Positions 1 to 59,566 of a stretch of DNA of 64,000 bases are shown one piece after another. Both the position numbers and the translations under genes were made by a program. The notes under the pieces were generated by a model. It did no database searches. It was given only the letters and a program-made list of their open reading frames with translations, and was not told where the DNA came from. The stretch is from a virus. Its lineage: Duplodnaviria > Caudoviricetes. Every line of letters starts with the position of its first letter. Positions within the stretch are counted from its first letter, which is position 1. The stretch lies in the IMG/VR virus record IMGVR_UViG_3300021400_001615, positions 96,884 to 160,883 of that record, one strand, 5' to 3'.

Positions 1-1
1 T

Positions 2-3000
2 ATTTAGAGCGCGATGGCTCATGCAATATAGGTGTTTGCGGAAAACGCTCTTATGTCTGCGGTTAAACAAGTTAGACCGGATATCAATATTGGTGACGTT
101 TACAAAAAAACTTCATTAGATAATTATTTTAGAGGAGAGAGTCTATTGCCGGGTGGTAAGGCAACCACTACTGTTTCTACTGAACCAACTTCTTCGGAAC
201 ATACAGTCAAGGTTAAGACCGATGTAAATTTTGACGATGTTCCCAGTAAACTTCAAGCCGCTATTGATTCAGGTAGTCCATATAAAGTTACTGTATCTAC
301 GGATGCATCTTCTATGAAAGAAATTATCTAGGGCGGCATTGACGCTGGGTCTCCGTATCAATTAACATCTATCCAACTTGGGCCAGATATGTAGATTGGT
401 GAGCAAATACAACAGAACATAGAATCTTTCGATTATCTTGTTAAACCAGATTTGGACCCATCTTCTGATTTGGCTGGTAAGGTAAGACAAGCGTTGGCTA
501 GTGGCGAACCGTATAAGGTTATTTTGGAGGCCGATACTGGGAAGAATGGTTCTGGTGGTAAAACTGGTGAAAGTCCGATTTCATCGGGTAATGCACTTGG
601 TGATTAGGTGGCCGAAAGCATGGATCGTGCTGCCAATTCAGCGGAAAACGCATCTAAGAAAATTGAAGAAGCAAATCAACGCATGAATTCCTATCGTGAT
701 GCATGGTAGAGAGAATCTATTTCCAGGACTTTGTCTGGTAATTATGAAGGGTATGGCGAGGGATATTCTAATAGAACTACTCTCTCACAACTTAAAAATG
801 CGCATGAGGCTTATGACACTGCTGTTGCAAATGAATGGAATTGGGAAGATCAATATCAATGGGGAATAAAGTTTGTAAACCTATTTGAGCAATATCGCGA
901 CAATGGTGGAACACAAAAAAGCCTTGCTGCTCATGTTGAATTATATGAAAGGTTAAAACCACTTGCTGAGGGATATGCCGCCGAATTATAGAAAGTATTA
1001 AACTTTACGCCTGGCTCTACTACTGATCAAACTCAAAAACCGACACAACCATCGCAACAAACACAGCAAAGTCAATAGGGTACACCACGCCAACCAAATA
1101 CTGCCGCATATAGGCAAGAACAGGAAGAAGTTAGTCATGTCGTAGAGGCGGAAGCTGCCGCATTCGATAGACTTAAGGAGAAGCTTACGTCTGAAATTCC
1201 CGCTGCTGTTGACACAAAGACATAGGCGTTTAGATCTGAACAGGTTGAGGTTGAAAATTTGATAGACCTAGAAATATCTAAACTGTCTGAATTATCAACT
1301 GCTCTTCAAAACGTGTTCAAGAATAATGGTTCTAATCCAGATTTTGGCCAATTAAAAGAACTGTTTGAAACAATAAAAACGCTCGGCGAGGGCGAAATAA
1401 AACTGCCAAATTTTGATCAACTCTTTGAATCTGTTGGCAAACTTGCTTAGGTTTTTGAACAATTAAAAGGCGTTCAGCCTGGTTAGGATTTTGCAGATAC
1501 TTTAAATTCTTTAAAAGTAACAAAGACCAATATTGATAATCTCGTTAATTTAGCTGCCGCCATTGAAATGCTTGGCGAGGCTTTTAAGAAATTGAATACG
1601 GATTCTATGTCGAATGAGGGTCTTTCTTCTATTTAGACTTTATTAGATCAGGCCGATGCTCTTAAAGATCTTGCTACTATCCTAACTAGTGATCAAGAAA
1701 AAATTAAGAAGGCAATGGACGCAACGAGCGGATCTGGTGGCGGAAATAAACAATCAGAGTTGAAAGAGCTTCGCGATTATAATAAGGCTGTCATAGATTA
1801 TTATAATGCACAACAGAGATTACAGACAGGAAAAACGGAAACAAAATCTAGAGACGAGCTTATTTCTGCAAAAGCCTTCGATGTCATGACAGCATACGAA
1901 GAAAAAATGGCGGAATTGCAAAAGAAAGGTGTTCAATTGTCTGACGAACAAACATAGGCTTTGGAAAAAAGAAAACAAAAGCAAGAAGAGCTTAATAAAT
2001 TGGTTGAAGATTATAACCGCACAAGAAGCGAAAAGCAATCCAAGAGGATTAAGGACGAAGTAGATAAGGAAATGAAGGCTCTTGGTAATTAGATAGACAA
2101 TGCCGCAAGGAATACATAGGGCAAAAACGATGCCTACAAATAGCAAATAGGTGACATGAAAGATCAGTATGCCGATCTCGAGAAATTTATTTAGGGCATA
2201 GATTGGAATGGGAAAAGCGAACAGGAAGTAAACACATTAAATCAATAGCTGCAAGAAGTTATCACCCGAATTAATAAAATTAAAGACGGACTGGCACTTG
2301 CATCAAATAGTGGCGATTTTAAATCAGCTAACGCAAATATGGTTTCTAGATTGAATTCTCAAATGGCTGCATGGATGGATAAAAATACCGCCGCCTCTTC
2401 TTATTTTCCAGCAATAAAACAACTTCAAGAGCAGTTGAAAAGTGTTGGCAGTTCCGAGTAGTTCAATGGTATTGTTTAGGGATTTGAACGCATCAAGGCA
2501 GAAGCAATTTAGGCTGGTTTGGCCGGTAAAAGTTTTGCCGATACTTTAAAAGGTAGTTTCGGTAACCTTGCTAGGTATCTTATGTCTTTTGCCAGTTTCT
2601 ATAGAATAATCGGCACAATAAAACAAGCCGTCTCTGTTGTTAGAGAACTTGATACTGCTTTAACTGAAATGAGAAAAGTATCAGATGAGTCCTTAACGTC
2701 TTTGAAGAATTATCAAAAAGAGACTTTTAATATGGCGAACCAGGTTGGTACTACTTCTGCTCAGATTCAGAGGTCTACTGCTGACTGGTTGCGACTTGGT
2801 CGTTCTTTCGACAATGCAAAGGAAATGGCTACATTATCTACGAAATTGTTGAATGTGTCCGAATTTGAAAATATTCAAGATGCCACTGATTCTCTTGTTT
2901 CTGCTACGCAAGCATTTACTGAGGTTCAAGCACCCGCAATTGTTGATAAGCTTAATTTGATTGGTAATAACTTCGCTATTTCTACTGATGATCTTGCAAA

Positions 3001-6000
3001 AGGTCTTCAAAACGCTGGTGCTGTTCTTAAAACGCAAGGTAATGATCTTGATCAAACTCTCGCACTGTTGACTGCTGGTAACTTGATCGGTCAGGACATT
3101 TCTAAGGCAAGTGCTGGTGTTCGTACTATTGCATTAAGGATTGCTGGTACTGAGGAAGCTAAGGATGAAATAAAAGATCTTGGTGAGGATGTAGACGATT
3201 TTGTTGTGAGAACAAAGTCTAAGACTGATTCAATTATTAAGAATTATACAGCTGTTGCTTCCAATAACTATTAGGGCGTTTCGGTACTTGATGACAATGG
3301 CAATCTTCGTGATACATATGATATCTTGCTTGATATTTCGGAGATATATAAAGAGATACAGGAAGAAGATAAAAAAGTTGGTACAAATAGAGCTTAGGCT
3401 CTTGTAGAAACCTTAGCTGGTAAAAATAGATCAAATATTGTTGCAAGTATCTTGTAGAATGGCGATATATTAAAACAGGTTAGGGAGTCGTCTGCCAATG
3501 ATTACTTTGGATCGTCCGATCAAGAATTAAGTAAATACCTTGATTCTATTGATGGTAAAATGGCTAAGTTAAAAAATAAACTGCAAGAATTAGCTTATTA
3601 TACAATAAACTCTGATGGATTTAAAATATTACTTGATTTGGTTAATGGATTGATTACGGCAGTAAATACGCTTGCTAAATCATTGGGTGGATTAAATCTT
3701 GCTATAGGTGGTGTTGCCGGATTTTTCTTGAAAAAGAAAGGTTTTGCCGTTTTAGATTATGATAAACAAACAAGACAGTGGACTAATATTTTTCAGAAGA
3801 TTGGCGGTCGTTCCGGTAAAACGTTTAGCATGGCTTATACTGATGAAGTAAAAGAGCAATTCAGCAAGTTTGACCCGAATGACACTTTGAAAAGTGCAAT
3901 TGAAGTTAACGGTAATGTTGAGGGTCAACCAAAAGAATTACAGAATTATTATAATCAACTAAGTGAAACGCAAAAACAAACCATGTTGGTTAGTCAAGCT
4001 TAGGCTGAAATGCAAAAGCGTAGTACTCTTCTGGGAAATGCACTTGGCACTGCTTCTTCTTTCGGTAAGCAGTTTGTGTCTGTATTGAGCAGTATGGCAA
4101 TTGCCACCATTGTATCCGCCGGAATTAGTTTGCTTATAAAAACCATTTATAACCTCATCACTTATGAACAAAGAATGATAGATAAGGGTAAGGAAGCTCA
4201 GAATGTTATAAAAGGTATTAATGATAGCTATAATTCAAAGAAAACGTTTGTTGATGATAATTTATCCAGGTATTCCGAATTGAGGAAGGGTGTTTCTGTC
4301 ACTGAAGATGATGGCGTACAAAATAAATCTTTATCCAATGAAGAATTTAGCGAGTTCTTATCTTTGAATAAAGAAATGCAGGAGATGTTCCCGAGCTTAG
4401 TCACCGGTTTTGATGCTCAAGGAAACGCTATGTTGGATCTTTCCGCAGATGCCGACGATGCCAGTAAAAGTATGCAAACTCTTCTTGAACAAGAAAGGCA
4501 AATGGCCGATTTTAAAGTTGGCGAATAGCTTGGTGATGCGGTTAAAGGTTTTGCAATTAGGTATAAATAGTTATCAGATGATATTGATGAATAGGACCAA
4601 ACAATAGAAGCTGCTCAATCAATACAAGACATAATAAACGGGAAAACATAGGAGGGAATAGATCTTTCTAAATTTGGCTTTGACGATTATGGCAACTTAC
4701 ATTATGAATTTGACGTTAATGATGAAGCGGCCAAAGGTGTTGCACACATGATTGCTGATGCTTATAATGCTGCTGCCGGTGATCTTGGTGGAATAATAAA
4801 TGACGATTCTGAAATCACTGGTGTTTTATCTGGCGGGTTGTCTTACTTTGACGAGTCACAACTTGCAGATTTTAAAGATAACTTTCTTTCTAAGATAGCT
4901 GAGATGAAACTTGGCGATGTGCCAGAAGCTGTTCTTGATGCTATGTCTATTAAAAACATAGATTTGGCGGAATAGAAAGCAGACTGGAACGCTCTTGTTC
5001 CGTCGATTTTGTCTCAACTTAATTTTTACGAAGATTATCAAAAGCTTGGCGATTCAAAAATTGGCGAATAGTTGCAATAGATAATTGCGGACGATGTTTC
5101 TAATCTTGACCTTGATCATTTAGAAGAAATATATGGCAAGGGAGCATGGACTAAGTTTTAGGATAATACAAGAGGTTTTATAAGAGAGAATTTCCTCGAT
5201 CCAATTACCAAAACCTTAATTGAAGATGGTAAAATTTCTGATGAAAAGGTAAATTTATTAGATTAGCTTATAAACTTTGATGGTTCAGACTTAACAAATG
5301 AAGAATATAGAAGTCAGATAAATGATATCGTAAATCAATTTTCAAAAGATGCTGAAGTTAGAGAAGATATAAAGGTTCTTCTCGGATTTAAGTATTATGA
5401 CGAAGACGGAAATACTCATTGGGATATAACAAAACAAAGAGACAAACTGTATGAGGCTCTTGGCGGTTTTGTCGGCGATGATGCAACTACCGGAAAGAAA
5501 ACGCATCATGTAAGAACCGGTATGAATATAAGCTGGGATAATTTCAAGAAATTGGATTAGTCTGAATTGAGCGCTATTAGTTATGCCGAATCAAATATGG
5601 GTGTTGATCTTGAAACGATTGACGAATGGGATAAACTAAAAGAGGTTATTGCAGAAGCAAAAGAACAAATGGAGGAAGTGTCGGAAATTACCTCTGATGG
5701 TACTCTTGCCGATATATTTAAGGATGAAACATACCAAGAATAGGCGGAGCAGTATAAAAAACAGTTAACCACCATTAATGACGCTTTGGAGAAATATAAA
5801 ACTAATACAATGCTTACCAATGACGAACAAGCTCAATTAATGGAAGAATTGTAGATATCTGATATTTCACCCGAAAATCTTTAGAATATGGGAGCAGAAA
5901 CAATAAGTGGTTGGGTTGATCAGTTACATAAATTAGCCGATGAAATTGGTCTCACAAAAGATGAAATGCAAGGTCTTGAGGAGTATATTAAAAATATATA

Positions 6001-9000
6001 TCTTTCATATGATTAGTTAGATATAGCTAATGATTAGGCTACTGGTATTAATTATATATCAAATAGAATTGCTAGTAAGAGTGGTTCAATCCCAACACGG
6101 GTTGTAAGTGAAAAAACTTCAAACATTTATAATCAATTATCTAGTGAATTTGGTTAGGTTGATAATGAGATTGTTTATTATCTGTCGTTAAATCCGGAAT
6201 CGGCCACTTGGACTGCCGAGCAATGGATTTCACATTATAAAGATACAAAAATAGATTTTTAGCTTACAGCAAACGACAAGGATTTGCAAAGAGTAAATAA
6301 GCTTGTTGAAAACAACCAAAAAGATATTGCTTAGGCAGAGGCTAATAATTCATTAAAAGAAGCGAATGGCGGCGTATTAAACCCCGAAGATTATAATGTA
6401 ATTGTTGGTAAGCAGCAAGATAGCGCAAATGCATTGAGAAATCGTGCAACTGGTTTATATGAATAGTGGTAGAAATATAATCTAGAAAATCCATAGTATG
6501 ACGCTTCATACAGTCAGAAATTGTGGGATGATTATGTTGTTGCCGACACAGAAGCTGCCAAAGCAGAGGCTGATCTGGCTGAAAAGCAAAAACAACAACG
6601 CGAAAGTTCTGTGAACGAAATCAATAAGCGAATAGAGGATGCCCAGGCTTCCGCTTCAGTATTTTAGGCAAACATTAAAAAGGCGGATGCGAATGGTAGA
6701 CATGCATCTGATGAAACGTACAGTATTCTTTCTGGGTATTTAAAAAAACAAGCCGACGATCAAAGAGAGCTTTATAATGAATATAAGGGATTGGTTACAA
6801 CCAATCCAGAATTTGCAACTTATTGGAATCAAAAAGCTTCTGATGCTTTGAATGCGTCTGTTGACTTAGATGAAGAGAGTTATAATACAAGGATTGCGCC
6901 AATAACAAATTATATTGATGATTTAATAAATAAAGGTGTCGATGGCCACGAGGCATTATCCGATCTTTAGCGTGAGGCGACAGATTTGGAAAATGATCTT
7001 AACGAGGCTGATTCAAAGCATTTAAAAATCAGTGATAAGCTTTATAAAAATCTTATTAGCAATGGTGATAAACAGATACGTAATCTTGAGGAATAGAGAA
7101 AAAAACAGAGAGAGCTTCAATCTGAATTTGAGCATGGAACTTCCGATTGGCAAAAATATCAGCAGGAAATCGACAACATCAACTCTTCTATCGATTCTAT
7201 GAGGCAGAATCAAATGGGTTGGACTGAAACTATGAATTCCTTAGTTTCTACCAATGCACAGCAACTTGCTTCTACCATCTCTTCTGCTTTTAGTGAAATG
7301 TCATCCGGCACTGGATTGACAATTGACACAATGAATGAGTTAGAGCGTCAGTTTAGTGATCTTGCTGGTCATGATGTGTCTGATATCTTCTATCAGTCTG
7401 CCGATGGCATGAAGTTTAATGCGGATGCTGCCGAGGCATTGGTTGATGCTGAGTATGAACTGTAGTCTACTAATCTTTCCAAAACTCTTACGGAGCAAAA
7501 GGACATTATTAAACAATGCGGCGACGCTCAGGATGAAACTACCCAGAAAACCATTGCTGCCGCAAACGAACGTATTGTAGCCACTCAAAGAGAAATGGCA
7601 ATGCTCCAGGCATGGTATGATCAGCAAAAAGAGGCGTTTAGCGGTTTACAGAAATTCCAAACTGCGCAAAGCACTGCTAATGAGGGTGCCGACTATGAAA
7701 CTATGCAAGGATATCTCAAAACTCAGCAGGAAAATAGAACGAAAGGCTTGACTGGCACCGATGAGTTTAGGGCGTATACGGAATACTTTGATCGTTGGGG
7801 TCTTGATACTGTTGCTGCATGGGATAGAAACAAGGAAAAAGTTCAAAGATATTTAACAGAAGACTTTTCTGGTATGAGACATTTCTTTGATGATCTTGTG
7901 ACAAATGGGCTTGCTGAAAAAAATGGTGATGCTTACAACTTAGACATTGAAAATGTAAAAGATGCCGCTGAATAGATGGGTATGACCGTAGAATGGTTTA
8001 TGGATATGCTCGGTCGCGCTGAGGATTATGGTCTCAGAAATGACTGGATTGAATCTGAAATTGATGGAAGAGAAAAAATACAGGAAGCCATTCATCAACA
8101 AATAGAAGCACAAAAGGAACTTACAAAAGCTCAACAAGAGGGTGCGCCAGAAGAGGTAATACAGGATGCTCAGAATGTATACGAAGATAGAACCGCTCAC
8201 TTAAACAATCTCAGAGATGAAGTTGAAACGATAACCTCTCGCCCAACAGAAATGACAAAAGATGAATTTTTAACTAATGTTGCCACATTTAAAGCTATTA
8301 GAAATGACTGGAAACATGCCAAGACCGATGAGGAACGAGAAGCGTATGAACAGGAGCTTAATCGTCTTGCTGAGGAAACAGGTCTCGAGGTTGATTTGAA
8401 ATTTAAGATTGATAAGGATTCTTATAACGAATAGCTTGAAAAATACGGTGTAATGACAAATGATTAGATACCACAGGCTAGTGATTTAGGAATTGGTATA
8501 GAACGTGCGCCAGAATATGAACAACTCTCTCAATCTTTGTATGATCTGAATCAAAATGCAGACAGTGATATTTAGGCCGCAATTAATACACTTGGTAATT
8601 ATACTGCTGAACAATTGAAATCTCTCGATCTTATTAGTGGCGGATATGACGATACGTTTGAGGGTTCCATTGAAGCTGAAAAGGCAATGGATGCATTAAA
8701 TTAGGCACTTGGTAATACAGGTGAAAATGCAGATTTGCTGGCTTATGCGTTGGAAGCGCTTGGATTAACATAGCAGAAAGTTACAGAGGAAACCACAACT
8801 GAAGTTAGGAAGCCAAAGAAAATTGAGCCGGAAGAAAAATTGGACTTACCTACCAATTTAATTGATCTTGCTTTTAATAACGTCAAAGAAAAGGTAACAG
8901 AAAAGGGTTAGGGACTTTTTGAGACTGCGAAGACCTGGGCGCAAGAAGCAAACACAAAAATCTAGGAACGAGCTGTTGCACAAAGAGAGATCGACCAGAA

Positions 9001-12000
9001 ACCAACCGTAGATAGTATTAATAATATGGCTGATACCGTTGGTAATGCGATTGAGTCTGGATTAGAAAATCTCGGAACAACATTTGAGTCTGTTGGTGAA
9101 TCTATTGTCGGCGCAATTGAAGTCATAACAAATCCGGATTCTACGAACGGTAAAACGACTAAAACATCATAGTCTTAGATTTAGAAACCCGGGATTTCCG
9201 CTGCGTAGACTCAGCAAAATAAACTTGCTAATGATGAAAATGCTAGTTTCAGTTCTGGAAATACTGGTGTTACCGTTACTGCTACTGTTGTTCCCGAAGA
9301 TACTTCACAGCTTCAAGGTTTGGAAGCGACGGCAAATGCAACCGTAGAAAATGCAAGTGTCCAAGATGGTGTTAAGGTTGAAGTTGAGGGTACAGCAAAT
9401 GTTACAGAAGCGGAAAATAATATTGTTAAACCGATGCAAATACAAGCGACCGCCAATGCCAATGTGGAAGTCGCCGATGGTGGGATGAAACAATCTGTTT
9501 CTGTTGACACAAATCAGGTAAGCGAAGCAAGCAGTGCCGTATCTGATCTTAGCTCTTAGGTAAGTAATATACCAGAGGGAAAAGCTCATGTAGACGCTGA
9601 AACATCTTCTGCAATGAGTGCGTTGCAATCTGTTGAAGATAAATTGTATGAAGTTGGTAATACGCCATCCAATCCGAGTGTAAATATCACAGTAAATGGT
9701 AAAACGGAATTAGATAGTGTAAAAAATACGATTGATAACTTAAAAGATAAAACCATAACGATTACCACTAAGCATGTAAGCACCGGTAGTTCTGGTAGTG
9801 GCAGCGGTCTTGGTGGTATTAACAACGAAGGGTTTGCATTTGCTGGTGGCACAGAGAAAGATCGTGTTATCCCAACGACGCATGCTGGTGAAACTCTTGT
9901 TGGTGAAGAGGGCTATGAGATCCATGTGGATCGTGATGGTCGTCAATGGAATATTGTTGGCGAGAATGGTCCAGAGTTCCGCACTGATATCGCTCCTGGT
10001 GATATTGTATTTAATCATGAATAGAGCAAAAAGCTTCTAAAGAATGGTTATACAACAAGTCGTGGTAAAGCACTTGCTAGTGGCAATGTAGAATGGCATG
10101 GTCCAGCATATGCGGACGGAGATGGCAAAAATGATGCACCCGTTGTAAAAGCAAGTTTTGCGCCCACACAGCCATACGTTGCTCCCAAAACATTAACAAA
10201 AACTATAAGTGAAGGCACTAGCTCTATTAAAGACCAGACCAAATCAAGCGATGATAACACAAAAGCCGTTCAGGACAACACTTCCAAACTCGACAAATTC
10301 CAACAATGGCTCGACTCTCTTAAGGATTGGATTGAAGTACGAATTGCCCGTCTCACATATAAGATGGAAATGGCAATTACTAAATCGGAAAATCTTGGTG
10401 GTAAAGGAAACAAAACAGAAACTGTTAATGGCGTGAAAAAGAAAAGGACGCAGAATTATGCCGATAGAAATGATTATATAAATGAGGCAATGTCTATTAA
10501 TGATTAGCTTCGTAAAGATAATAAGAGTGGAGCAAAGGAATACGGTAAATATGCTGCCAAAGTTGCAAGAAAGGCGCAAAAGGCTGGTTTAATTACAAAG
10601 GCTGAGAGAAAAGATTTGGTGCCAAAGATTCAAGATGGAGCGATAAGTATCGAAGATTTTAGCCGTGCTATAAGCAAAAAGAAAAATAAAAATGGTAGCG
10701 ATTCTAAAAAGACTGAAAATACAATTAAAACATTTATTGATGCATATACTGAGTGGTATGAGAAAATGCTCGATTGTAAAAAAGCACAAGAAGAATGTAT
10801 TGCCAAGCAGAAAGAATTGCAGCAAACAAAGCTTGACAATATCACTGAACAATTTGAGGGATTAATAGAGGTGGCCACTTCATATCAAAATGTTTCTGAT
10901 TCTATGATCCACATGCTTACCGCACAAGGCAGGACTGCTGTTAATGATGAAAAATTCCAGAAGCAATATGATAATTAGATTACTGAAGAACAAAACATAT
11001 CTTCTTATTTAAAAATGGAACTCGACGCATATGACGCAGAGTTGGTAAATGCGAAGAAAGTTTTTGGTGAGAACAGTAATGAATATCGTGCTGCCATGGC
11101 ACAAAGAAACGAAATAGAACAATCTTATAATGAAAGCATTGCAAAGATTGCCGAACTTCGTAAAGCAAAAGAAGAAATGGTATTTAAATCTATTAGTAAT
11201 ACTATTGAACGAATTAAGGGGATATCTTCACTTATTTCTGCCAGAATGTCTTTGAGCCAGAAACGTGGTAATAAGAATAATGAATATGACAAAGACAGTG
11301 AGGATCCGAATAGATACATCAAGATGAACGAGGGTCTTATGGCTCGTAATAATGATATGATCCTGATGTGGAATAAGCAACGTGAAGAAGCGGCGAGATG
11401 GATAGGTAAAAACAAACATCTGGAAGGTAGCGAAGAATATCAGGATTATTATAATCGTTATATCGAAGCCGAAGAGGAAATCCTCGGCCTTATGGAAAAC
11501 CAAGAAGATATCAAAAAGAATATCCGCGATTATCGTTGGAAATCCTTCAATGATCTTCAATAGGAAGTAAAGAATACCATTACAGAAATAGATAATCTGC
11601 GTAGCACTATGAATGAAGCTGAATTCTTTGATGCAGAGTTTGGCATTAATATTACTGATAAAGGCTATGCAAATATTGCTCTTCTGCGTGATGGTATGAT
11701 TGAAGCCGAGAAACAGGTAGCTGATTATCAAAAGGCGTTGGAAAAACTCGAAGAAGATTATGATAATGGTAATATAAGTGCCGACGAGTATAGGCAAGGT
11801 GTGGAAGAATATAGTAGTGCTATAAAAGAGGGTTCTGATGATATCAGGCAATATGAAGACGCTCTTGTTTCTATGTATAAGACGCAAATTCAAAATGAAA
11901 ATGATTTACTTCAAAAAAATATCACAGCCAGAAAAAATGCTTTGACGGCTAAAAAAGCGTGTTTTTAAGAATGCGCTTATTCATTAAATTGCTGAAATAC

Positions 12001-15000
12001 CCTTAGAGATTTATATACCACAGCAAAATCATGAAACATGGATAATTGCGATGGTTTTAAAAATATAGATATTGGACAATCAGCAGCCAAGCGGCGAATA
12101 GCCGAAGGTTCAGAGACTATGGGCTTTGTCGCCCAGTAGGACTGCAAGCGATTGGCAGTTCGAAAAAGTGAACTACTTTATTTGAAAAAGAAAGGTATTG
12201 TAAATATGTATGATAAAGATGAAATTGTAAAAATAAAATGGTCAAAGAAAAATAAAAAGTATTATGAAAATATTGGTTATAATTATACTAAGATTGGAGA
12301 TAGTCTTGATGTTAGAGCTTGTGATTTACCATGGAATTCTCATGAAAAAATAACTGCCACCTGTGATTGTGATGGGTGTAGTAATACAACAAAAGTTCCT
12401 TACAGAAATTATAATAAAGCCCTTGAAAAGTATGGACACTATAGATGTAAATCTTGCGCTATTAAAGATTATGTAAGACAGAGAACAAAAAAGTCTCATG
12501 AAAGATTATATGAATTATTTTTGGAAAAATGCAGAGAACATAATTGCATCCCAATAACAACGCTTGATACTTTTCATGGCGCGGATTCATTTGTTGAATA
12601 TATATGCCCAGTTCATGGCATAATGAAAACTTATATGAGCAATATTAGAGGATCTAATGCCTGGTGTTATAAATGCGGAAAGGCATCTATGGCAAGTCAA
12701 TGTAAATTAACTCCAGATGAAGTGAAACGACGAGTTGAGAGTAAAAATAATAATATACTATTAAATCTCGAAGACTATATTAATACAAAAACAAAGAATC
12801 TTAGAGTAATATGTGGAACTTGTCACGAAGAATTCATCACATCTCTTTCGTCCATGGATAATAGCGAAGGTCGTTGCTCAAAATGTGGATTAGAAAAATC
12901 ATTTGAATATCATGATAACAGGAAAATTATTTATTATAATAAGTTTGCTGAAATGTGTGATGAATCCGGATATACTCTCCTCTCTTCGTTTGAAGAATAT
13001 AAAAATTGTTTTTCTAAACTTAGATTTGTATGTCCAAAACATGGTGAGCAATCGGTGAACTATGTAAAATTTTATAGTGGTCAGAGGTGTCCATAGTGTG
13101 GTATAGAAAGTTCCCATTTATCATCAATGTTGACTTAGGATGAAGTTGAAACAAGAATTAATTCCATAAATGACAATGTATTGTTAAATAAAGAAGATTA
13201 TTGTGGCAATAGTATTGTTAATTTAAGGATACAATGCTCTTGCGGAAATGTTTATGTAACGAGTCTTGCTAATTATGAAAATCAAAGTGTAAATCGTTGT
13301 CCTCAATGTATAAAATCCATAAGCAAGGGCGAATTTAAAATCGCATCGGTATTAGATAAATACAAAATTCCCTATATACGTGAGTATAGATTTTTGGATT
13401 GTAAAGATAAAAGGCCATTACCATTTGATTTTTATATAGAAGATTTTAATTGCATTATTGAATTCGATGGAATTTAGCATTTTGAACCCGTTTATGGACA
13501 AGAGCAGTTTGATTATATTCTACGACATGATAATATTAAGAATAATTATTGTCATCAGAATAATATTAGAATTATTCGTATACCTTATTGGGATTATGAT
13601 GCCATCGAAGATATAATAACGCATGAGTTTAATATTAATAAAATAAAATATATTACTTATCCAATTAAATAATATAACTTTTCAAATAAAGTAGAAGATA
13701 TAGTCCCCTCTCATGCGAAAGCATGAGCAGTGTGTAAAACACGGCATAGTGTAGCGAACTATGTGAAGATTTAGGATTACGATTATGACAAATCGATAAA
13801 AGATTCCAACAAAGACATTACCAGTATCCAAGCACAGATTAATTCTCTGTAGAATGCAACTGACCAAGCATCTCGTGCTAAGTTGGTAAAACTTCAGCAA
13901 CAGCTTAAAGATGCTCAGGATCAACAAGCAGATACTATGTACAATCATCAGATTGATGTCAGATAGGAAGGTTACGACAAATTAGCTGAGGATTCTACAA
14001 ATGTACTGAATGATACACTTAAGAAAATTGATGCTGACGAAGAAACCAGAAACGGTATAATTAAGTATCAACTTCAACAACTTGACGGCAATGAATAGAA
14101 AGCTCTGGAGGCGTTGAAATAGCAACAGCTTTCGTCTGGATTGGCGGTTCAAGGTGAGGTTTCTAAGTTTATTACCGATTACGACACCAAAGATGCGCAA
14201 AATAAAAATTGGCAAGAACAAGTATCTGATGAGGCTAAAAATTTAAATACGTCAACTATCGAAACGCTTACACAAGAGGGTAAGAAAATTCAGGATGCAA
14301 TTGATACGGATATAAATACTAGCTTAAAGGATATTGCTGGATCTGGCGACACTGGCATAGCTGGTATAAATACGAAGCTTGCCGGTATTTAGGCTGAGTT
14401 AGAAAAAAAGGATGGTAAATCTGGTTCTGATTCTAACAAGAAGACAGAATTAACTCCAGAACAATAGAAGGAACAGAATTGGGAGAACCTAAAGGGTCAA
14501 TTAATAGCTCTTGGTAATAAAAACGGTATAAGATATGAATTCGACGATAAAAATAAAACATACAGGGAATTCAAAAAAGAAAAAATTGGTACCCGTATGG
14601 AAAATGGCAAAATGGTCGATGTCTATGATTATGTAGATATGGGCAAAGGTGATATTGGCACAGCCGAAAAAAAGACAGTAAAAGCATCTGATAAGGCAGA
14701 AACTAAAAAAGAGGTTAAAAAAGTAAATAAGGATGTAAAGAAATAGAAAAATGATTAGGCAACAATAGCTAAAATCGCCACCTATTTGGCCAACAAAAAT
14801 CTTAAGTCGAAAAATGGTAAGGTCACAGATAAATCCAAAAAGGAAGTATCCGATTCCATATATACTGCAATAGCAAAGATTCTTGATGTCAAAAACAAGA
14901 AGAAAACGATAAAAGCAGAATTAAAGAGGCTTGGATACCGCAAAGGTTCTCATTCTACCGATGACGAAATGAACTGGCTGCATGACTCCGAGGTAATTAT

Positions 15001-15379
15001 TCGCAAATCTGATGGTGCGATCCTTCAACCGTTTAATTCCGGTGATATGGTATTCAATTCTAAGATGAGCGAAAATCTCTGGAAGATGGCGCAGATTCCA
15101 ACAGAAACGGTTAAAGCAATGGTAGCGAACCCAGACATGAGTAAGTTCAACATGCCTGGTATTACTGATAGAATTAATAAGACAGAAAATAACAATCAGC
15201 AGATTCATATTGATTCTCTCATCACTATCAATGGCAATGCTGATCAGCAGACGGTTGCTGACATTAAACAGATTGCAAGAGAACTTACTAACAGCAGAGA
15301 CTTTCAAAAGAATATGACAAATATGGTAACTAAAGAGATGACTCGTGAGGCTGTTAAAGCTGGATATCGAGGTAAATAA
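2..15379 (+). CDS. Tail tape measure protein; 5'-truncated by window edge, TAG=Gln, two exons (<2..11960 and 13776..15379), at least ~4,520 aa
   Basis: The fragments at 32, 731, 1259, 1715, 2519, 3560, 4010, 4748, 7199, 7595, 7976, 9320, 9614, 10616, 11015, 11609, 14141 and 14786 share one frame and break at TAG. Exceptions: 11609 runs into a TAA inside the intron and 14786 ends at the true TAA at 15379. The tape-measure core lies near 2519-3560 (VRELDTALTEMRKVS...TADWLRLG...IVDKLNLIGNNFAIS). The spliced junction reads KKAY|YDYDKSIK. Dit and Tal follow. Confidence 0.92.
11961..13775 (+). mobile_element. Group I intron (1,815 nt) in the tape measure gene, with a homing endonuclease ORF in the P8 loop
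   Basis: P1: exon AAGCGU pairs with GCGCUU, giving U.G at 11960. Conserved elements: P AAATTGCTGAAA (~11986), Q AATCAGCAGCC (~12078), R TCAGAGACTA (12110-12119), S AAGATATAGTCC (13695-13706). A perfect 16-bp P8 stem (12173-12188/13679-13694) brackets the ORF. Terminal G is at 13775, and removal restores the frame (T+AT=Tyr). Confidence 0.92.
12206..13672 (+). CDS. Intron-encoded homing endonuclease: Cys-rich Zn-binding repeats plus C-terminal Vsr/DUF559-like (EDxHD-type) nuclease, TAG=Gln, 488 aa
   Basis: AAAGGT RBS precedes ATG 12206. Repeated CxxC/CPxHG motifs. C-terminal SKGE...LPFDFY...IIEFDGI(TAG)HF...HD..KNNYC...IIRIPYW. In-frame TAGs at CP*C, LT*DEV and EFDGI*HF. Ends TAA 13672. Confidence 0.85.
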
Positions 15380-19400: not shown

Positions 19401-22400
19401 ACGACTTTGTTGAGATTATTGGCAGTGCTTCTGGAAGTAGCGGCAAGAATTAGATTACTGCAACTTATAATAGTTAGAGTAATGCTACTACTAATGTGAC
19501 CACAGATTTCATCATGCAGTTATTAAACAGCACAACATTCAATAATGGAATGGCAAACAATATTGCAGCCGGAATTGTTGGTGGTGGTGTTATTACTGAT
19601 GCTCTCAACAGCATGGATCTGTCGGTTGATCAGATTTCGGATTTGACAACCAGGCTGAGTGATCTTGCTGATGGATATCTGGATGCCAATCTGATTGTTA
19701 CTAAAATACTGAATGCTGAAGAAGCAAATATTCAGAGACTTATTACTAAGACGGTCAATGCTCAGTCTGTAATTGCCGGATTAGTAGATGCAGACTACGG
19801 TGATTTTGATAATCTCCATGCCGACTCTGCATTTATTGAAAAGTTCAAAAGTGATTATATCAATACTGCCTATATCGAGAGTGAGGTTGCTGATCTTGAT
19901 GTTGTTCATTCTCAGATAATTACTGCTGATAGTGCGTTCGTAAAAAGTCTTGAGGCACTTTCAACAAATGTGATTAATTCTACTGTTAACTCAGAATTTG
20001 TTGTCAATTTAGTTGCCAATCATCTCACCGCAAATCAGCTTGCTGCCGGTGATTTGGTTCTTACTGATGGCATGAGGATTGTATCTAATAATGAGAACGG
20101 AGGCAATGTATTATTCAATGGCTCCACTCTCCAGTTTTTAGATAGTGAGGGAAATGTTGGCATTCAAATTGGATACAATACAGAGTAGGATGCTACTCAT
20201 CCGCATATTGTTATTACGGATGATAATGGTTCGACTATTCTGACAAGTTCTGGTATTACTACTAATGCTGTTGCCGATTAGTTATTGGTCAACCGGATGT
20301 TTAAAGATAGTACAATTGAGAAGACAAAAATAAACTTCCCGATTTTTTAGCCCAATGATTATGGTGGCACTGATATTTATATACCACATGATCCAGAATC
20401 CGGTCAGGCTGGTCATGAGTATGTCAGCTTTATTAATGATTATCTTGGGGTTTCTCCGTATGTTGAATTAGACTAGCACAATATTGTTGTAACAGATCCG
20501 AATAATATTGTTCTTACTGCTACTACACATTTTGGCGCAGTCATTGATAGATGGGAAATAGATGCTCTTGGATATCATAACTCTGTGGAGACAACTTCTA
20601 CTACATATACAGTAGATCCGGAAATTATTAATGATTATATGTATGTTAGGGTTAGGGTTGTGTGCAAAAATGGATTAAGTGCTGATATAAGTGATACTGC
20701 TTTTATTACGCTGAATACTAGCGATAATTCTGTACGACAATATACGGAATACTGTCTGTATGATTCAAGTACTACAATTGATACATCTCAGGTAACTTGG
20801 TCAAAAGAAAGACCAGACCCAGACAGAAGCAATATAGATTCAATCGAAGATATTAATAATAACTTTATCTGGCAAAGGGATGTAATTGAGGAATACGAAG
20901 AAGTTTCCTCTAATGATAACGAGCAAACTACAGAGAGAATAATTTATCGCATTGAATTTGATCCGGTATGTTTTGTCGAGATTACAACAATGCAGTTTAT
21001 TATGGATAAAGCAAAAAGGTCCATTCTTAGCAGATTAGCTGATCAAACTACTGCTACTATAAATGATTCAATTACCAGATTGACAACACGAGAAAGTGTT
21101 ATGGAATAGACACTGGATGGTGTTAAGAGTGCTGTATCTCGTAGTGATGTTGATTATATTACTCTCCCAGATGGGACTCAAATTCAGACAGTTGCTAAGT
21201 CCGTCAACACTGTTGCAGAACAGACTGCGGATACGTTTAGTTGGATAATCCAAAGAGAAAGAGACGACGAAGTGATGAGCAAAACGAATTTTGTTCTTAC
21301 TCCAGACATGGCAAGTTTAGTCTCTAATCAATTGGTTATCACTGATCCAGATAATGATACATCCACTGTTATCTCAGGTGGTAAAATAAATGCAAATTCC
21401 ATCACTACTAATATGTTAACGTCAGACATTATTAAATCTTATGATTTTCTAAAGAGATCATCTTTGCAGGAAAATTAGCAATTTTCTCTCATCGGTTCTT
21501 TCTTAGACTTAGAAAATGGTAATTTTATAACTCCGTTTTTCGGTGTTATTAATGAAGCACCGGAGGGTTCGGGATTGACAGTCGGTGCTTATTTTGACGG
21601 TAACATTCACAGTATAACTGGTGAAATTGGTGGTTGGAATATTGTAAAAAATGCAATTTACAGCAATCAAGATAATAATTATATTTCTTTGCGTAACCCA
21701 TTTATTCCGGTAGTTAGAAAAGATTTTTCTGGCTATATTGCATCAACTTCTGGATGTGCTACTCGTATTACCAATCAAGGACTTGTAGTGACTATTACTG
21801 ATAATACAAATCCAAGTTTGAGACTTGTGTTTAATAGCACTAACATAGATGGTTTTTCAGATACGTCTGGACTTAAATTTAAAATAAGTGGAGTTAAGGA
21901 TCTTAATGCTGCATCAGATTATAACTATTATAAAGATGGAACAAATGTCCATGTTTCTGTTAACCCTCTAAATGAGGATAATGAGAATACGGCCATTTGC
22001 GGTTCTCCTAATCGTATTACTTTTGTTGAATATGATTCTGTAGAAACTGGAATAAGTATATTTTTCAAAACTCATTATCATACGCCTTTATTAAATGATG
22101 AATATATATTAAACGTTGTAGTATATGATGCTCATGGCGAAGAAATGCTTAATTTTAAGAATGATGTTTACATTGAAGATGAACTTACTATAGGTACTAA
22201 TCATGTATTAACTGTTACAACTCAAGTTGATGATGAAGCTACTACTCCATTCTATCTTACTAGCGATGGTTATCTCTATGCTCAGAATGCCAATATTAAA
22301 GGAAGCATTATAGCCGACACTGGATATATTGGTGGAACAAATGGATGGGTAATCGAAGAAAGTAAAATTAAGAGCAACGTTGCTGCCAATCAGCCCGGGT

Positions 22401-54273: not shown

Positions 54274-55575
54274 TTAAACCAGAGGTGTGGATATCATCCT
54301 CATCTCTGCTTCTGACATGTATTTCATTTTCGTATCAAGGCTCTGGATATCGTAAGTATAATGCTCGTCATTAACCCTCGGTGTATTCCCAATAAGGTCT
54401 CCTGCTTCGGTCGCTGATGCGCCATTATATCTTAAATAGGAATTAAAAGTACGTCTGATTGCGTGTATACTTTTATGACTGTCAAACTGCAACTGGTCAC
54501 ATTTGTGGTTCATGTACGCCGTCAGATTTTTGCATCTGAGTTTGTTGTCTTTGAAGGATAAGACGAAATCTTCGACAGAACCAAATCTTCCCTGGAGATG
54601 CTGCATCTTCCGCAGGAATTCCCGAATATGATCGGTAATGGGAACATTGCGAATTTTGCCGGTCTTGGTCTTGTGCTGATAATACTTTTTGTCTATGACA
54701 TCGTATTTCTCAGATTCGCATATCCTTATGTAATTGTCATGTACATGTCGCCATCTTAGTCCAGCAATTTCGCCAACCCGCATTCCGGTAAGGATAGCAA
54801 GTTGAACGCCATATGGATAGATGTACTTCTCGTTCCTGTCAATATCCAGCTTGATTTGTGTGATGAGTCTGGCGAGATCTTCCTGCGAAAGCGTTCTTTC
54901 CTCCGGTGTTTTTTCATCGGTGTTATAGAACTTCACGAATTTCTTCTTATCTACATACAAACATGGATTTTGAGATGCTTCCATCTTGCGATCCATGACA
55001 GCGTTGTAAAATACTCCGCTGATGCATGCATATAGAGAATCAGAACTTCGCCGCTTAAGGTTGAACTTCTTAATAGAGCTAATCATGAACACTTCAATAT
55101 CACGGGATGTGATCTCGAACATGTCACGATCCTTAAATGGATTATCACCAAAGAACCTTGTCCAATCTGTCTCGTAACGGCGAATACTATTATTAGTCTT
55201 GCCATACTCCTTTTGCGCTTCCATCCATCGGTCATGCGCTTTAGAGAATGTAAAGACATCCGGCGGCTTTTGTTCGAAGCCAACCGTGTAGTATTCTACG
55301 ATCAGATCCTCAATTTCCTGTCTGGTCTTCCGGCTCCTTTGGATTAGTTTTCCAGTTTCCTCATCTAAAAATCTTGTATACCACCTTCCATTCTTTTCAT
55401 TACAGGTAGGTTTATAGGGATGATCTTTTAAGATCTTTGCTCTTCTATTCATCTCTATTTGTTCCTGTATACACTGCAAGGCAAGTATACCATCTTCGCC
55501 AAATTTATTCAATATTTCTGCTTGAAATTCTGGGGTTACCACAGCGGTGACCCCATTTTTTACGTCATTCGTCAT
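54274..55575 (-). CDS. int: Tyrosine recombinase/integrase
   Basis: TGMRVGE (R), KTKTG (K), HAIRR (HxxR) and GNT...HYTY (Y). Start codon uncertain. Confidence 0.9.
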   Translation of the reverse strand: MTNDVKNGVTAVVTPEFQAEILNKFGEDGILALQCIQEQIEMNRRAKILKDHPYKPTCNEKNGRWYTRFLDEETGKLIQRSRKTRQEIEDLIVEYYTVGFEQKPPDVFTFSKAHDRWMEAQKEYGKTNNSIRRYETDWTRFFGDNPFKDRDMFEITSRDIEVFMISSIKKFNLKRRSSDSLYACISGVFYNAVMDRKMEASQNPCLYVDKKKFVKFYNTDEKTPEERTLSQEDLARLITQIKLDIDRNEKYIYPYGVQLAILTGMRVGEIAGLRWRHVHDNYIRICESEKYDVIDKKYYQHKTKTGKIRNVPITDHIREFLRKMQHLQGRFGSVEDFVLSFKDNKLRCKNLTAYMNHKCDQLQFDSHKSIHAIRRTFNSYLRYNGASATEAGDLIGNTPRVNDEHYTYDIQSLDTKMKYMSEAEMRMISTPLV

Positions 55576-57025: not shown

Positions 57026-59566
57026 TCATTCACACTTGCTCCATCCACAGTCGGGGCATTGCTGACACTGACCGGTGAAGATGATTTCACCTCCACATTC
57101 TGGACAACGTGCTTTATTTTTAATCTTTGGAAGTTTGATTGTGGAGTTTTCGTGTTTAACCTCAACTACAATCTCTGGCGAGGTTACATACTCTTCATCT
57201 TCGTCAAACAACTCTTCCTGCATCTCTTTATACATATCAAGCAATGCATTACCGATTGCTGACGGACAGCTTGATCCTTTGGAACAATCATGTGTCCTAG
57301 CATTTCTAGCTGCATAAGAGGGGCAAACATACACGCTCTTTAACTGATCGACAATTGAATAGATATCAATGCCACCACGAGCGCAGAGAGATGTAAGTCT
57401 TGAGATACCCTGATAATTAACACTGCAACCACCCTGGCTGCCCTTATCAAGCCACATATGGATCAGATCGCCAGTGTCCGGATCAAAATCCGCTCTTACC
57501 CAGAGCGTCCCGCATCCGGTTGTCAGCTTTCTAGTTTTGCCAACGACATTTTCATCAGCTACAATAATCATTCCACGTTCAAGCTTTTCGGGAACTTCTT
57601 TGGTTTCGTTCTTATCATTAAGCGTTAAGACTCCGGCTCGTTTACAACCATCTCTAAAAATGGTTACACCTTTCAGACCAGCTTCCCACGCTTTCATGTA
57701 CAGATCTTCTACTTGTTCGACCGTAAAATCATTAGGGACGTTTACGGTAGAACTGATGCTTGCGTCAATATGTTTCTGCCAGATTGCTTGCATTTTAATT
57801 CTTTCTTTGTAATCAAGCGTTTGTGCTGTTACAAAGAATGACGGAAGGTCTTTATCATCTGAGATATTATTTTCTTCCATGTATTTCTTAACAATCGGAG
57901 TGTAAACTTTGTAGTATTCATCGTGGCCATGTAAGGACTCTGTCTTTCTGGTATAGTAATTAGCAAAGATAGGCTCAATGCCACCAGACACTCCAATCAT
58001 TGTTGACAATGTTCCGGTTGGTGCAATTGTAAGCAACTGTGAATTGGCTAATCCACATGACACATCAGTATCGCCAACATGCTCACTGAAATATGCGGAT
58101 TGCATGACCGCTTCTGGATGATACTTGGGATAATGACCGATCACTTTTGCAAGTTCAGCCGATGTTTTAATAGCTTGATAAGCCATTTTCTGTCCAATCA
58201 TATCACACAGATGAATAGACTCTTCGCTACCATAACGGATATTCATCTTAATTAGCATGTCGGCAAGACCCAAAATTCCGCAGCCAACCTGTCGCCAATC
58301 ACGAACAGATTCTCTCTGTTCTTTAAGAGGATGAAGCGGTAATCCCTCATCTAATACTTCGTTTAATGCTTTGATTGCAATGTCTACGGTGTTCGCAAAA
58401 TCATCGAAATCAAATGTCTTGTCTTTAGTTACAAATTCTGAAAGATTGATGGAGCCGAGTAAACACGACCCACCTGGCGGAAGTGGTTCTTCGGCCATTA
58501 ATGGACTATATCTTCATCTTCAGCATTACCTGTTAAGAGGTTCGCACTTCGAAGTGTAACCACATCACTCCTACTCTACTTAGTATTATTAACCTTTCGA
58601 TAGTCTCTTGACCTTCCGATATACGGCTTGGCACAGGATTCTTGGCATCCCCTGTTAGCACATCTTTTAGCTACCATTTCCTGTAGTTACTATTCGTAAG
58701 ATGTACACCCACTGGTTAGGTGGTTCACGAACGATTATTTCATAATATTTCTATTATGCCCTGCACCGAATTCGACAGGGATTCACACCGCCATATTCAA
58801 ACTCTGGATCGCAACTAAGTAAATTCCAGTTATTAATTCTGTCCCACATGAGCATTCCTGGTTCCGCATAGTCCCAATTGGATACGCAAATCTTGTGGAA
58901 TAGATCATAAGCATCAATCGTTTTTCTAATTGTTTCACCGGTTTCGACTCTGGTAAAATTCAATTCAAATGGCTCTCTATTTTTAACAGCAGCCATAAAT
59001 CTGTCAGTAATACGGATGCTGATGTTAGCTTTAGTAACACGATCCGTGTTCTGCTTAATCCCAATAAAGTCTTCAATATCTGGATGATCACATGGAATTG
59101 AGATCATCAATGCGCCCCGGCGGCCGTTCTGCCCGATCAATCCAGTTACCATTGAATACAAATCCATGAAGCTTACAGACCCAGATGTTTCCTTGGCAGC
59201 GTTATGAATTTTTGCACCCTTGGGAGCAAGCTTTCCAATGTCAATTCCACAGCCACCACCATAGCTGTATGTTCTAGCTAATTTCTTAGCACAATCAAAG
59301 ATTTCTTCGATGGAATCGTTGGGAGCGGATATGACATAGCAATTGGATAGACTTATCTTTCTACCATCCTTTTCTGTACCCCTATTGGCGAGAATTCTTC
59401 CGCCAAACAAGAACTTCTTATCTAAGATTTGTTTCTTTAATATTTCGTTTTTATTTGATACTCTATCCAACCACTCATCAAACGTTTCATTATTATACTG
59501 GTATTTTCTGTGCCATATGTCTGCACCCAACTGATTATCTTTCCCCAGCCATTCTTCAACAGTCAT
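57026..59566 (-). CDS. nrdJ: Class II (B12-dependent) ribonucleotide reductase, exons 59566..58775 and 58495..57026, 753 aa
   Basis: SNCYV, GGGCG, RRGALM, GVNPC|AEEPL...SCLLGSINL, TIAPTGTLS...SGGIEP, ISSTVN and KGVTIFRDG motifs. C-terminal Cys-rich/Zn-ribbon tail. Confidence 0.92.
58496..58774 (-). mobile_element. ORF-less group I intron (279 nt) in nrdJ
   Basis: On the minus strand: P1 CCCUGU/GCAGGG (U.G at 58775), P10 UUCGGU/GCCGAA, P3 GUUCGU/GCGAAC, R UCAAGAGACUA and S AAGAUAUAGUCC. Terminal G is at 58496. Splicing restores NPC-AEEPL. Confidence 0.9.

Follow-up and report, generated by a model that had tools for sequence, protein, structure and literature searches.

Group I introns have been reported at three sites (IVS1-3) in the tape measure genes of prophages of the Bacillus cereus group (Tourasse and Kolstø 2008, PMC2504315). 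Intron endonucleases that bear the reassigned stop codon of their phage also have precedents. In Agate phages a group I intron endonuclease is preferentially recoded with TGA, and its in-frame stops were proposed to hold back synthesis of the homing endonuclease to a late stage (Borges et al., bioRxiv 10.1101/2021.08.26.457843). In crAss-like phages the open reading frames (ORFs) of PolB introns contain TGAs that must be suppressed (Yutin et al. 2021, PMC7886860). The element described here lies at positions 11961 to 13775, on the plus strand, of a 64,000-nucleotide stretch of DNA (the window, positions 96884 to 160883 of the 160,883-bp IMG/VR virus record IMGVR_UViG_3300021400_001615). It is inserted in the tape measure gene of a phage whose late genes use TAG as a sense codon, and it contains an endonuclease gene with three in-frame TAGs. 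The explanation that we favor, and hold to be very probable, is that this is a mobile group I intron of the IA2 type in a recoded tape measure gene, and that the TAGs of its nuclease are ordinary Gln codons of the host dialect.

The locus resembles the Agate and crAss-like systems in having an intron endonuclease ORF that carries the reassigned stop of the phage. It differs in that those cases, found in early genes or PolB of Agate and delta crAss-like phages, involve TGA-to-Trp recoding, whereas here TAG-to-Gln recoding is found in a late virion gene. When the two sets are placed side by side by description, it shares with the Bacillus introns the use of several positions within one tape measure gene, but it belongs to a different phage group and its gene is far larger (~5,300 codons) and recoded. 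The novelty that a preliminary description of this DNA had attached to a recoded intron nuclease and to an intron in a tape measure gene was, given these three precedents, overstated. New here are the reading of TAG as Gln in an intron ORF of a late gene and the contrast to a homologous pair of nuclease and intron in a relative that uses the standard code.

The interrupted gene matches tape measure families (phrog_4211, E 4.9e-69; PF10145, E 7.7e-18), and the tape measure label is sound. Exon 1 runs from a gene start outside the window, at genome position 94590, through window positions 1 to 11960 (plus strand; ~4,751 codons, 92 in-frame TAGs), and exon 2 occupies 13776 to 15379 (plus strand; 533 full codons past the junction codon, 8 in-frame TAGs) in frame with exon 1. 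The 5' exon ends in ...AAAAAAGCGT, with T11960 as its last base, and the intron opens with GTTTTT. At the other end, ...TTTAGG/ATTACG marks the 3' splice site, G13775 being the omega-G and ATTACG the start of exon 2, so that the ligated junction reads AAAAAAGCGT/ATTACGATTAT. The junction codon is made of T11960 (codon base 1) and the AT at 13776-13777, which gives TAT (Tyr) in frame with the downstream ORF; an unspliced exon 1 would terminate two codons inside the intron.

Natural intron-less versions of this site were found among tape measure relatives obtained from the protein collection. Four metagenome proteins (P0003-P0006, 41-54% identity) span the last 650 residues of exon 1 and the whole of exon 2 in a single alignment with zero gaps at the junction (...KK[AES]-Y-YDYDK...), where the Tyr is invariant. 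The DNA of their contigs, L010 and L011, is uninterrupted at this site, and the joined exons are collinear with these uninterrupted homologues. The splice junction given in the preliminary description is exact to the base, and its statement that the tape measure gene houses a group I intron agrees both with the family matches of the host gene and with those of the intron core. A search of IMG/VR for related loci with exon 2 returned no relatives, and blastn against GenBank phages found no related phage; the matches were short and fell on the intron core (Streptococcus phage Str-PAP-1 and Pseudomonas phage HPP-Temi) and on the nuclease domain.

Both halves of the ribozyme core match the group I model RF00028 in a permissive scan of the region. 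The 5' half (11979-12173, model positions 49-158) scores 24.3 bits (E 1.7e-3) and the 3' half (13650-13725, model positions 160-251) 24.8 bits (E 1.2e-3), and the two matches are collinear on opposite sides of a 1.5-kb ORF. The 5' core (11961 to 12188, plus strand) contains P3, P4, an extended P5, P4', P6/P6a, the 5' strand of P7, P7.1 (12121-12134), P7.2 (12139-12161), P3' and the 5' arm of P8. The 3' core (13679 to 13775, plus strand) contains the 3' arm of P8, element S, P9 (13710-13727), P9.1 (13730-13742), P9.2 (13745-13763) and the terminal G13775. The elements P (P4, 11987-11997), Q (P4', 12078-12088), R (5' strand of P7, 12108-12120) and S (J8/7 and the 3' strand of P7, 13695-13706), and the perfect 16-bp P8 stem (12173-12188 with 13679-13694), all on the plus strand, are present, as the preliminary description had stated.

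Pairings at the splice sites were read from the sequence of the P1/P10 region (11955 to 11978, plus strand). In P1 the exon AAGCGU (11955-11960) pairs with the guide GCGCUU (11973-11978), with a U11960-G11973 wobble at the 5' splice site, and AAU (11970-11972) can form P10 with the AUU that opens exon 2. A P1 with U-G, an internal guide and the terminal G13775 are features of group I introns. The P1 pairing is compensatory in four related introns: AACAGU/GCUGUU in locus L012, AAACGU/GCGUUU in L016, UGCGU/GCGCA in L014, and also GGGCGU/GCGCUU. In other words, P1 co-varies with each exon and the U-G at the splice site is always kept.

Covariation extends through the core. Across five homologous introns (those of the window, L012, L014 and L016, and a fifth, ORF-less one in L016), two-sided compensatory changes occur in P3, P6a, P7.1, P7.2, P8, P9 and P9.2, with nearly no broken pairs, and P4 and P7 are invariant. 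The automatic alignment put the P1 and P9.1 columns out of register; P1 was checked by eye in each intron, and no covariation is claimed for P9.1. The conserved P3-P9 core is accompanied by the hairpins P7.1 and P7.2, which we take to be marks of the IA2 subgroup. From its sequence, positions 11961 to 13775 are assigned to a group I intron of IA2 type that is predicted to splice itself. It is like the IA2 introns of other phages (T4 td, nrdB and sunY, and the SPO1-type DNA polymerase introns) in the P1 U-G, the terminal G, the conserved P4 and P7, the P7.1/P7.2 hairpins and the presence of an ORF in a peripheral helix; it is unlike them in its host gene, the tape measure gene of a TAG-recoded phage, in having the ORF in P8, and in a core that is split by 1.5 kb.

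The P8 loop holds the homing endonuclease ORF (12206 to 13672, plus strand, 488 codons), which consists of zinc ribbons followed by a C-terminal nuclease. A Shine-Dalgarno-like GAAAGG (12190-12195, plus strand) stands just outside the P8 arm before the ATG at 12206, a start conserved between this ORF and its three closest homologues. A scan of the intron for promoters and terminators gave a background level. The protein matches phrog_559 (E 3.8e-64) and CapR (1.7e-5), with a weak match to DUF559 that is below the cutoff (E 0.0045), and its family has 908 matches at E <= 1e-10. Three or four repeated Cys4 zinc-ribbon modules (DUF723/CapR/DUF4379) make up the N-terminal part; CapR came from the Pfam scan of the window protein, and DUF723 and DUF4379 are precomputed hits on homologues. 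In the Pfam scans of the window protein and its homologues, only zinc-ribbon families were found, and neither NUMOD nor helix-turn-helix domains.

The three in-frame TAGs of the ORF are at codons 297 (13094-13096), 311 (13136-13138) and 424 (13475-13477). The last of these sits in EFDGI-q-HF, between the invariant G422 and H425. The count of three and the place of one TAG inside the nuclease motif agree with the preliminary description, and its statement that the nuclease domain would be lost under the standard code holds too, since this copy would then stop at codon 297. The residues that are invariant in the family (D408, E419, G422, H425, D442 and K445) are all present, and E376 and D421 are near-invariant.

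A decaying pseudogene, in which the TAGs would be nonsense mutations and the ribozyme alone functional, might be suspected at this point: group I intron ORFs are often degenerate, and ORF-less related introns occur both in this genome and in relatives (L011, L016B). Yet there are no TAA or TGA codons among the 488 codons, compared to ~33 expected from shuffles, and the invariant residues past the TAGs have all been kept. In addition, two of the TAGs are shared with a homologue that is just 61% identical, the homologues read through all three TAG positions rather than ending at the first, an end that the preliminary description had named as refuting its reading, and the late genes as a whole use TAG as sense, exon 1 of the tape measure gene already having 92. 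Decay of the ORF is highly improbable in light of these data, and an intact endonuclease gene is preferred.

The nuclease has the catalytic fold of the Vsr-like PD-(D/E)XK enzymes. An AlphaFold2 model built with 32 sequences has a predicted local distance difference test (pLDDT) score of 90.5. When re-aligned with VIA-align, residues ~370-478 superpose on Vsr (1cw0_A; Z 11.0, root mean square deviation 2.4 Å, 101 aligned; Z 10.1 for 1vsr) and on the catalytic domain of I-Bth0305I (3r3p_A; Z 10.9, root mean square deviation 2.6 Å, 91/97 aligned). The fold assignment is owed to this re-alignment, because a profile search of PDB sequences returned zinc-ribbon look-alikes and no nuclease, and Foldseek with the whole model returned nothing at E <= 0.001. 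I-Bth0305I is an EDxHD (Vsr-like) endonuclease encoded in a phage group I intron (Taylor et al. 2011, PMC3239194; PDB 3R3P). The two proteins share this type of home and a Vsr-like C-terminal fold, and E376, D408, D421, H425 and D442, which belong to the invariant or near-invariant set, follow each other in an order compatible with E-D-x-H-D, a comparison of order along the sequence only. They differ in that the protein described here has Cys4 zinc ribbons instead of NUMOD/helix-turn-helix domains and a motif of the form E-[FY]-D-G-x-Q-H. The PHROG label 'HNH' is misleading; by the structure match, the domain is Vsr/EDxHD-like PD-(D/E)XK.

The recoding itself is confined to one part of the genome, which is that of a gut phage with direct terminal repeats, rated 100% complete. 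When TAG is read as sense, the late block of virion genes (plus strand, genome ~68-150 kb) consists of long ORFs with many in-frame TAGs and TAA or TGA ends. On the minus strand, the long ORFs in the left arm (1-57 kb) are nearly all TAG-free, and in the block with the integrase and ribonucleotide reductase genes nearly all long ORFs are without TAG, the dUTPase gene having one. Such in-frame TAGs, restricted to late genes and found inside conserved ORFs with a TAA or TGA terminus, are as expected of code 15.

Alignments identify Gln as the best-supported meaning of TAG. In the column of TAG424, Q is found in 68 of 119 homologues (57%), L in 4 and Y in 3, and S never. TAG311 is also TAG in the closest homologue, that of L012, and at two TAGs of the L012 gene (alignment columns 293 and 393) the remaining three close homologues have Q. 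At 45 well-aligned positions in tail genes where recoded relatives have TAG, the standard-code relative has Q in 31%, compared to a background of 4.1% (7.6-fold), E in 22% and S in 13% (a 1.7-fold enrichment of Ser). The earlier reading of TAG as a Gln sense codon inside the nuclease gene is consistent with these homologue alignments.

Several results weigh against the explanation as a whole. Each of the two RF00028 matches to the core is below the curated gathering score of 50 bits, and a whole-window Rfam scan at the gathering score found no intron. Both the low half-scores and the miss arise from the splitting of the core by the 1.5-kb ORF in the P8 loop; ORF-less related introns score 60.7-100.9 bits. 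A match to group I models, which the preliminary description had named as a check, was thus obtained for both core halves in collinear order, but at the gathering score for neither. The cleavage activity of the nuclease and its target site are predicted from the fold and the context. A canonical tRNA-CUA of Gln type was not found in the genome, and looser ARAGORN thresholds gave noise and no tRNA-CUA. Outside the window, at genome 87246-87550 (11246-11550 in locus L008), a group I intron of ~212 nt (RF00028 50.5 bits, E 6e-12) interrupts a tRNA-like gene. By our reading of its sequence, splice sites after U and after G fit the guide UUUGGA and would give the anticodon loop CU-CUA-AA of an amber suppressor. 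The tRNA would have a long variable arm and a G as discriminator base, which are traits of type II tRNAs and not of tRNA-Gln, so that the sole candidate suppressor is mismatched to a codon that aligns with Gln. Finally, all four nuclease genes from recoded phages have a TAG within DG-x-x-H, which pure drift does not predict.

The suppressor bears on the possibility that TAG is a sense codon for Ser, Leu or Tyr, so that the code is not strictly code 15. As we read its sequence, the type II features of this only candidate, unlike tRNA-Gln, speak for such a meaning. The alignments oppose it, both through the 7.6-fold enrichment of Q, compared to 1.7-fold for Ser, and through the TAG424 column, where Ser is absent and Leu and Tyr are rare, and a meaning other than Gln is distinctly unlikely.

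The coincidence of TAGs at the motif bears on a different possibility, that the TAGs are a selected lock. The preliminary description regarded the element as code-locked, able to home only late in infection and to spread only among recoded phages, and predicted that it would be harmless in a lysogen. In such a scheme the TAGs, above all that in the catalytic motif, would be kept by selection so that the full nuclease requires suppression, which would guard a lysogen or the early stage of infection and confine homing to recoded phages. The nuclease genes of the closest relatives allow a comparison of codes. There are three TAGs in the window gene, five in that of L012 and two in that of L014, all from recoded phages, and none in that of L016, which uses the standard code and has no TAG in ~5,000 tail-gene codons. 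This comparison, also among the checks named at the outset, gave two recoded homologues with TAGs and one standard-code homologue without, that is, TAG follows the host genome. The L016 homologue (55% identity), TAG-free and in a homologous intron, does not bear out the claim that the element spreads only among recoded phages. Among 80 IMG/VR loci with members of the nuclease family, essentially all use the standard code and are without TAG, a test of the lock in which one search pattern was biased against TAG at the motif.

The frequency of TAG in the nuclease gene is that of its surroundings. TAG makes up 23% of the Gln-like codons in the nuclease ORF, 20-28% in the tape measure exons, 20% in the distal tail gene and 22% in the next, tail-associated gene. 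Because its share is equal to that of the neighbors, the TAGs indicate passive equilibration rather than a designed lock. What stood of the code-locked claim is that this copy needs TAG read-through; what did not is any sign of a lock in TAG share, or an absence of standard-code homologues. The restriction to late infection is plausible and largely redundant, since the intron already sits in a late virion gene and transcription alone suffices for late expression of the nuclease. The barrier to homing would also be weak, as a donor would supply suppression in trans during co-infection, so that homing into a standard-code genome would not be blocked in a mixed infection. On the available sequences, TAG use tracks the host genome, with no barrier confining the element to recoded phages.

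The motif does speak for a lock. A TAG stands at the conserved Q of the motif in the window gene, in that of L012 and in a 37%-identical paralogue from L010, and one codon earlier in L014; the standard-code homologue of L016 has LHH at the corresponding positions. The window and L012 genes share TAG311 and TAG424 at just 61% identity, the genome encodes a TAG-free integrase, and Borges et al. reported a preferentially recoded intron endonuclease and made a similar suggestion for TGA-recoded Agate phages (bioRxiv 10.1101/2021.08.26.457843). The coincidence was, however, noticed post hoc and involves two or three independent lineages, too few for a conclusion, and the other TAG positions are scattered and variable. 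Together with the unremarkable TAG share, the late host gene, the suppression in trans and the nuclease-intron pair in a standard-code phage, these points make a selected lock unlikely. Just as doubtful is its more specific form, in which the TAG of DG-x-Q-H would be a selected translational gate that yields the full nuclease only when an intron-dependent amber suppressor is active. If such a gate were true, standard decoding (in early infection, in a lysogen or in a standard-code recipient) would yield a 296-residue zinc-ribbon DNA-binding fragment, homing would go hand in hand with the code switch, and a single regulatory chain would include two self-splicing introns.

Mobility of the intron, as an ordinary passenger of the host code, is suggested by its relatives. 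The three closest nuclease homologues, in L012, L014 and L016, are located in the same tape measure region, with 52-61% identity among the four proteins (61% between window and L012, the pair with TAG311 and TAG424 in common), and the intron cores of all three are homologous to that of the window. No second copy of the nuclease gene was found in the genome. The closest phage relative by neighboring tail proteins (86-89% identity) is L010, which is without this intron. L010 has another one ~650 codons upstream, in which the 37%-identical, TAG-containing paralogue is encoded, and in L011 the same upstream position holds an intron without an ORF (RF00028 87.8 bits).

Two insertion sites are separated by 28 nt: the introns at L014 9754-11528 and L016 6270-8101 occupy the upstream one (...CGT/AAR) and those of the window and L012 the other (...GCGT/ATTA). 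At both sites the guide sequence matches its own exon. Homologous introns at two sites 28 nt apart suggest, from sequence comparison, that the intron shifted its site. A second intron in L016 (8212-8513), ORF-less and of the same family, is found ~110 nt downstream of the nuclease-bearing one, and gene calls suggest at least three interruptions of the L016 tape measure gene. At least four intron positions are seen in tape measure genes across the relatives: the upstream site of L010 and L011, site A of L014 and L016, site B of the window and L012, and one further downstream in L016. Judging by these positions, the tape measure genes of this phage group have thus been colonised repeatedly and at several sites.

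Additional group I introns were found elsewhere in the genome. Three ORF-less ones are in the late block, outside the window, at genome 80154-80432, 80557-80819 and 84880-85221 (4154-4432, 4557-4819 and 8880-9221 in L008 coordinates), with scores of 60.7, 100.9 and 65.7 bits. The first two are 125 nt apart. Just 3' of these introns are free-standing endonuclease genes, one of phrog_4645 (genome 80942-81961) and one of HNH type (85399-86679). Two of the three late-block introns share 70-83% identity with the 5' core of the intron in the tape measure gene. The ribonucleotide reductase gene is in two ORFs (58754-59566 and 57026-58498, minus strand), and a full-length, sub-threshold match to RF00028 (23 bits, E 0.0014) lies between them at window 58482-58784, minus strand; a further group I intron is thus probable here, in an early gene that has no TAG.

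Downstream of the tape measure gene are genes for a DUF6558 distal tail protein and for a protein of 2,487 residues with matches to phrog_6211 (minor tail protein) and to tail fibre families. The spliced tape measure protein (window 1-15379 plus the upstream start) would have ~5,285 residues, and that of L012 has more than 5,800. Tail length follows a rule of ~1.5 Å per tape measure residue, which predicts a tail of ~0.8 µm. A tyrosine integrase (window 54274-55575, minus strand; PF00589 E 1.8e-13) is TAG-free, and its presence in a terminally repeated genome of 161 kb suggests that the phage might be temperate. An HDV-like ribozyme family of Faecalibacterium prausnitzii (RF02682) has a match at genome ~57582-57652 (19582-19652 in locus L006), minus strand, with 46.4 bits for a gathering score of 44, a possible pointer to the host or to a retroelement.

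A mobile intron in ordinary use of the host dialect would operate as follows. After late transcription the ribozyme would excise itself and join ...AAGCGU to AUUACG..., restoring the Tyr codon and a single tape measure protein of ~5,285 residues. The ORF in the P8 loop would be a free-standing translation unit for the homing endonuclease, whose N-terminal zinc-ribbon modules presumably bind DNA. The Vsr/EDxHD-like domain would be expected to cut intron-less alleles in mixed infections, and repair would copy the intron in. The three TAGs most likely came from CAG-to-TAG drift over a long residence in recoded genomes. This copy would depend on TAG read-through, and the element would be neither designed around it nor limited by it at the level of the family.

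Several introns as well as TAGs interrupt the tape measure genes of this group, and standard pipelines will in consequence fragment these genes badly, which matters for their annotation. The locus provides a cleanly documented mobile intron with its homing endonuclease in a phage alternative code, with a natural control in a standard-code relative, and it supports a simple rule, that selfish elements adopt the dialect of the genome in which they reside. As a corollary, a TAG-bearing copy should be able to transfer once into a standard-code phage, with suppression supplied in trans, and would there reach a dead end.

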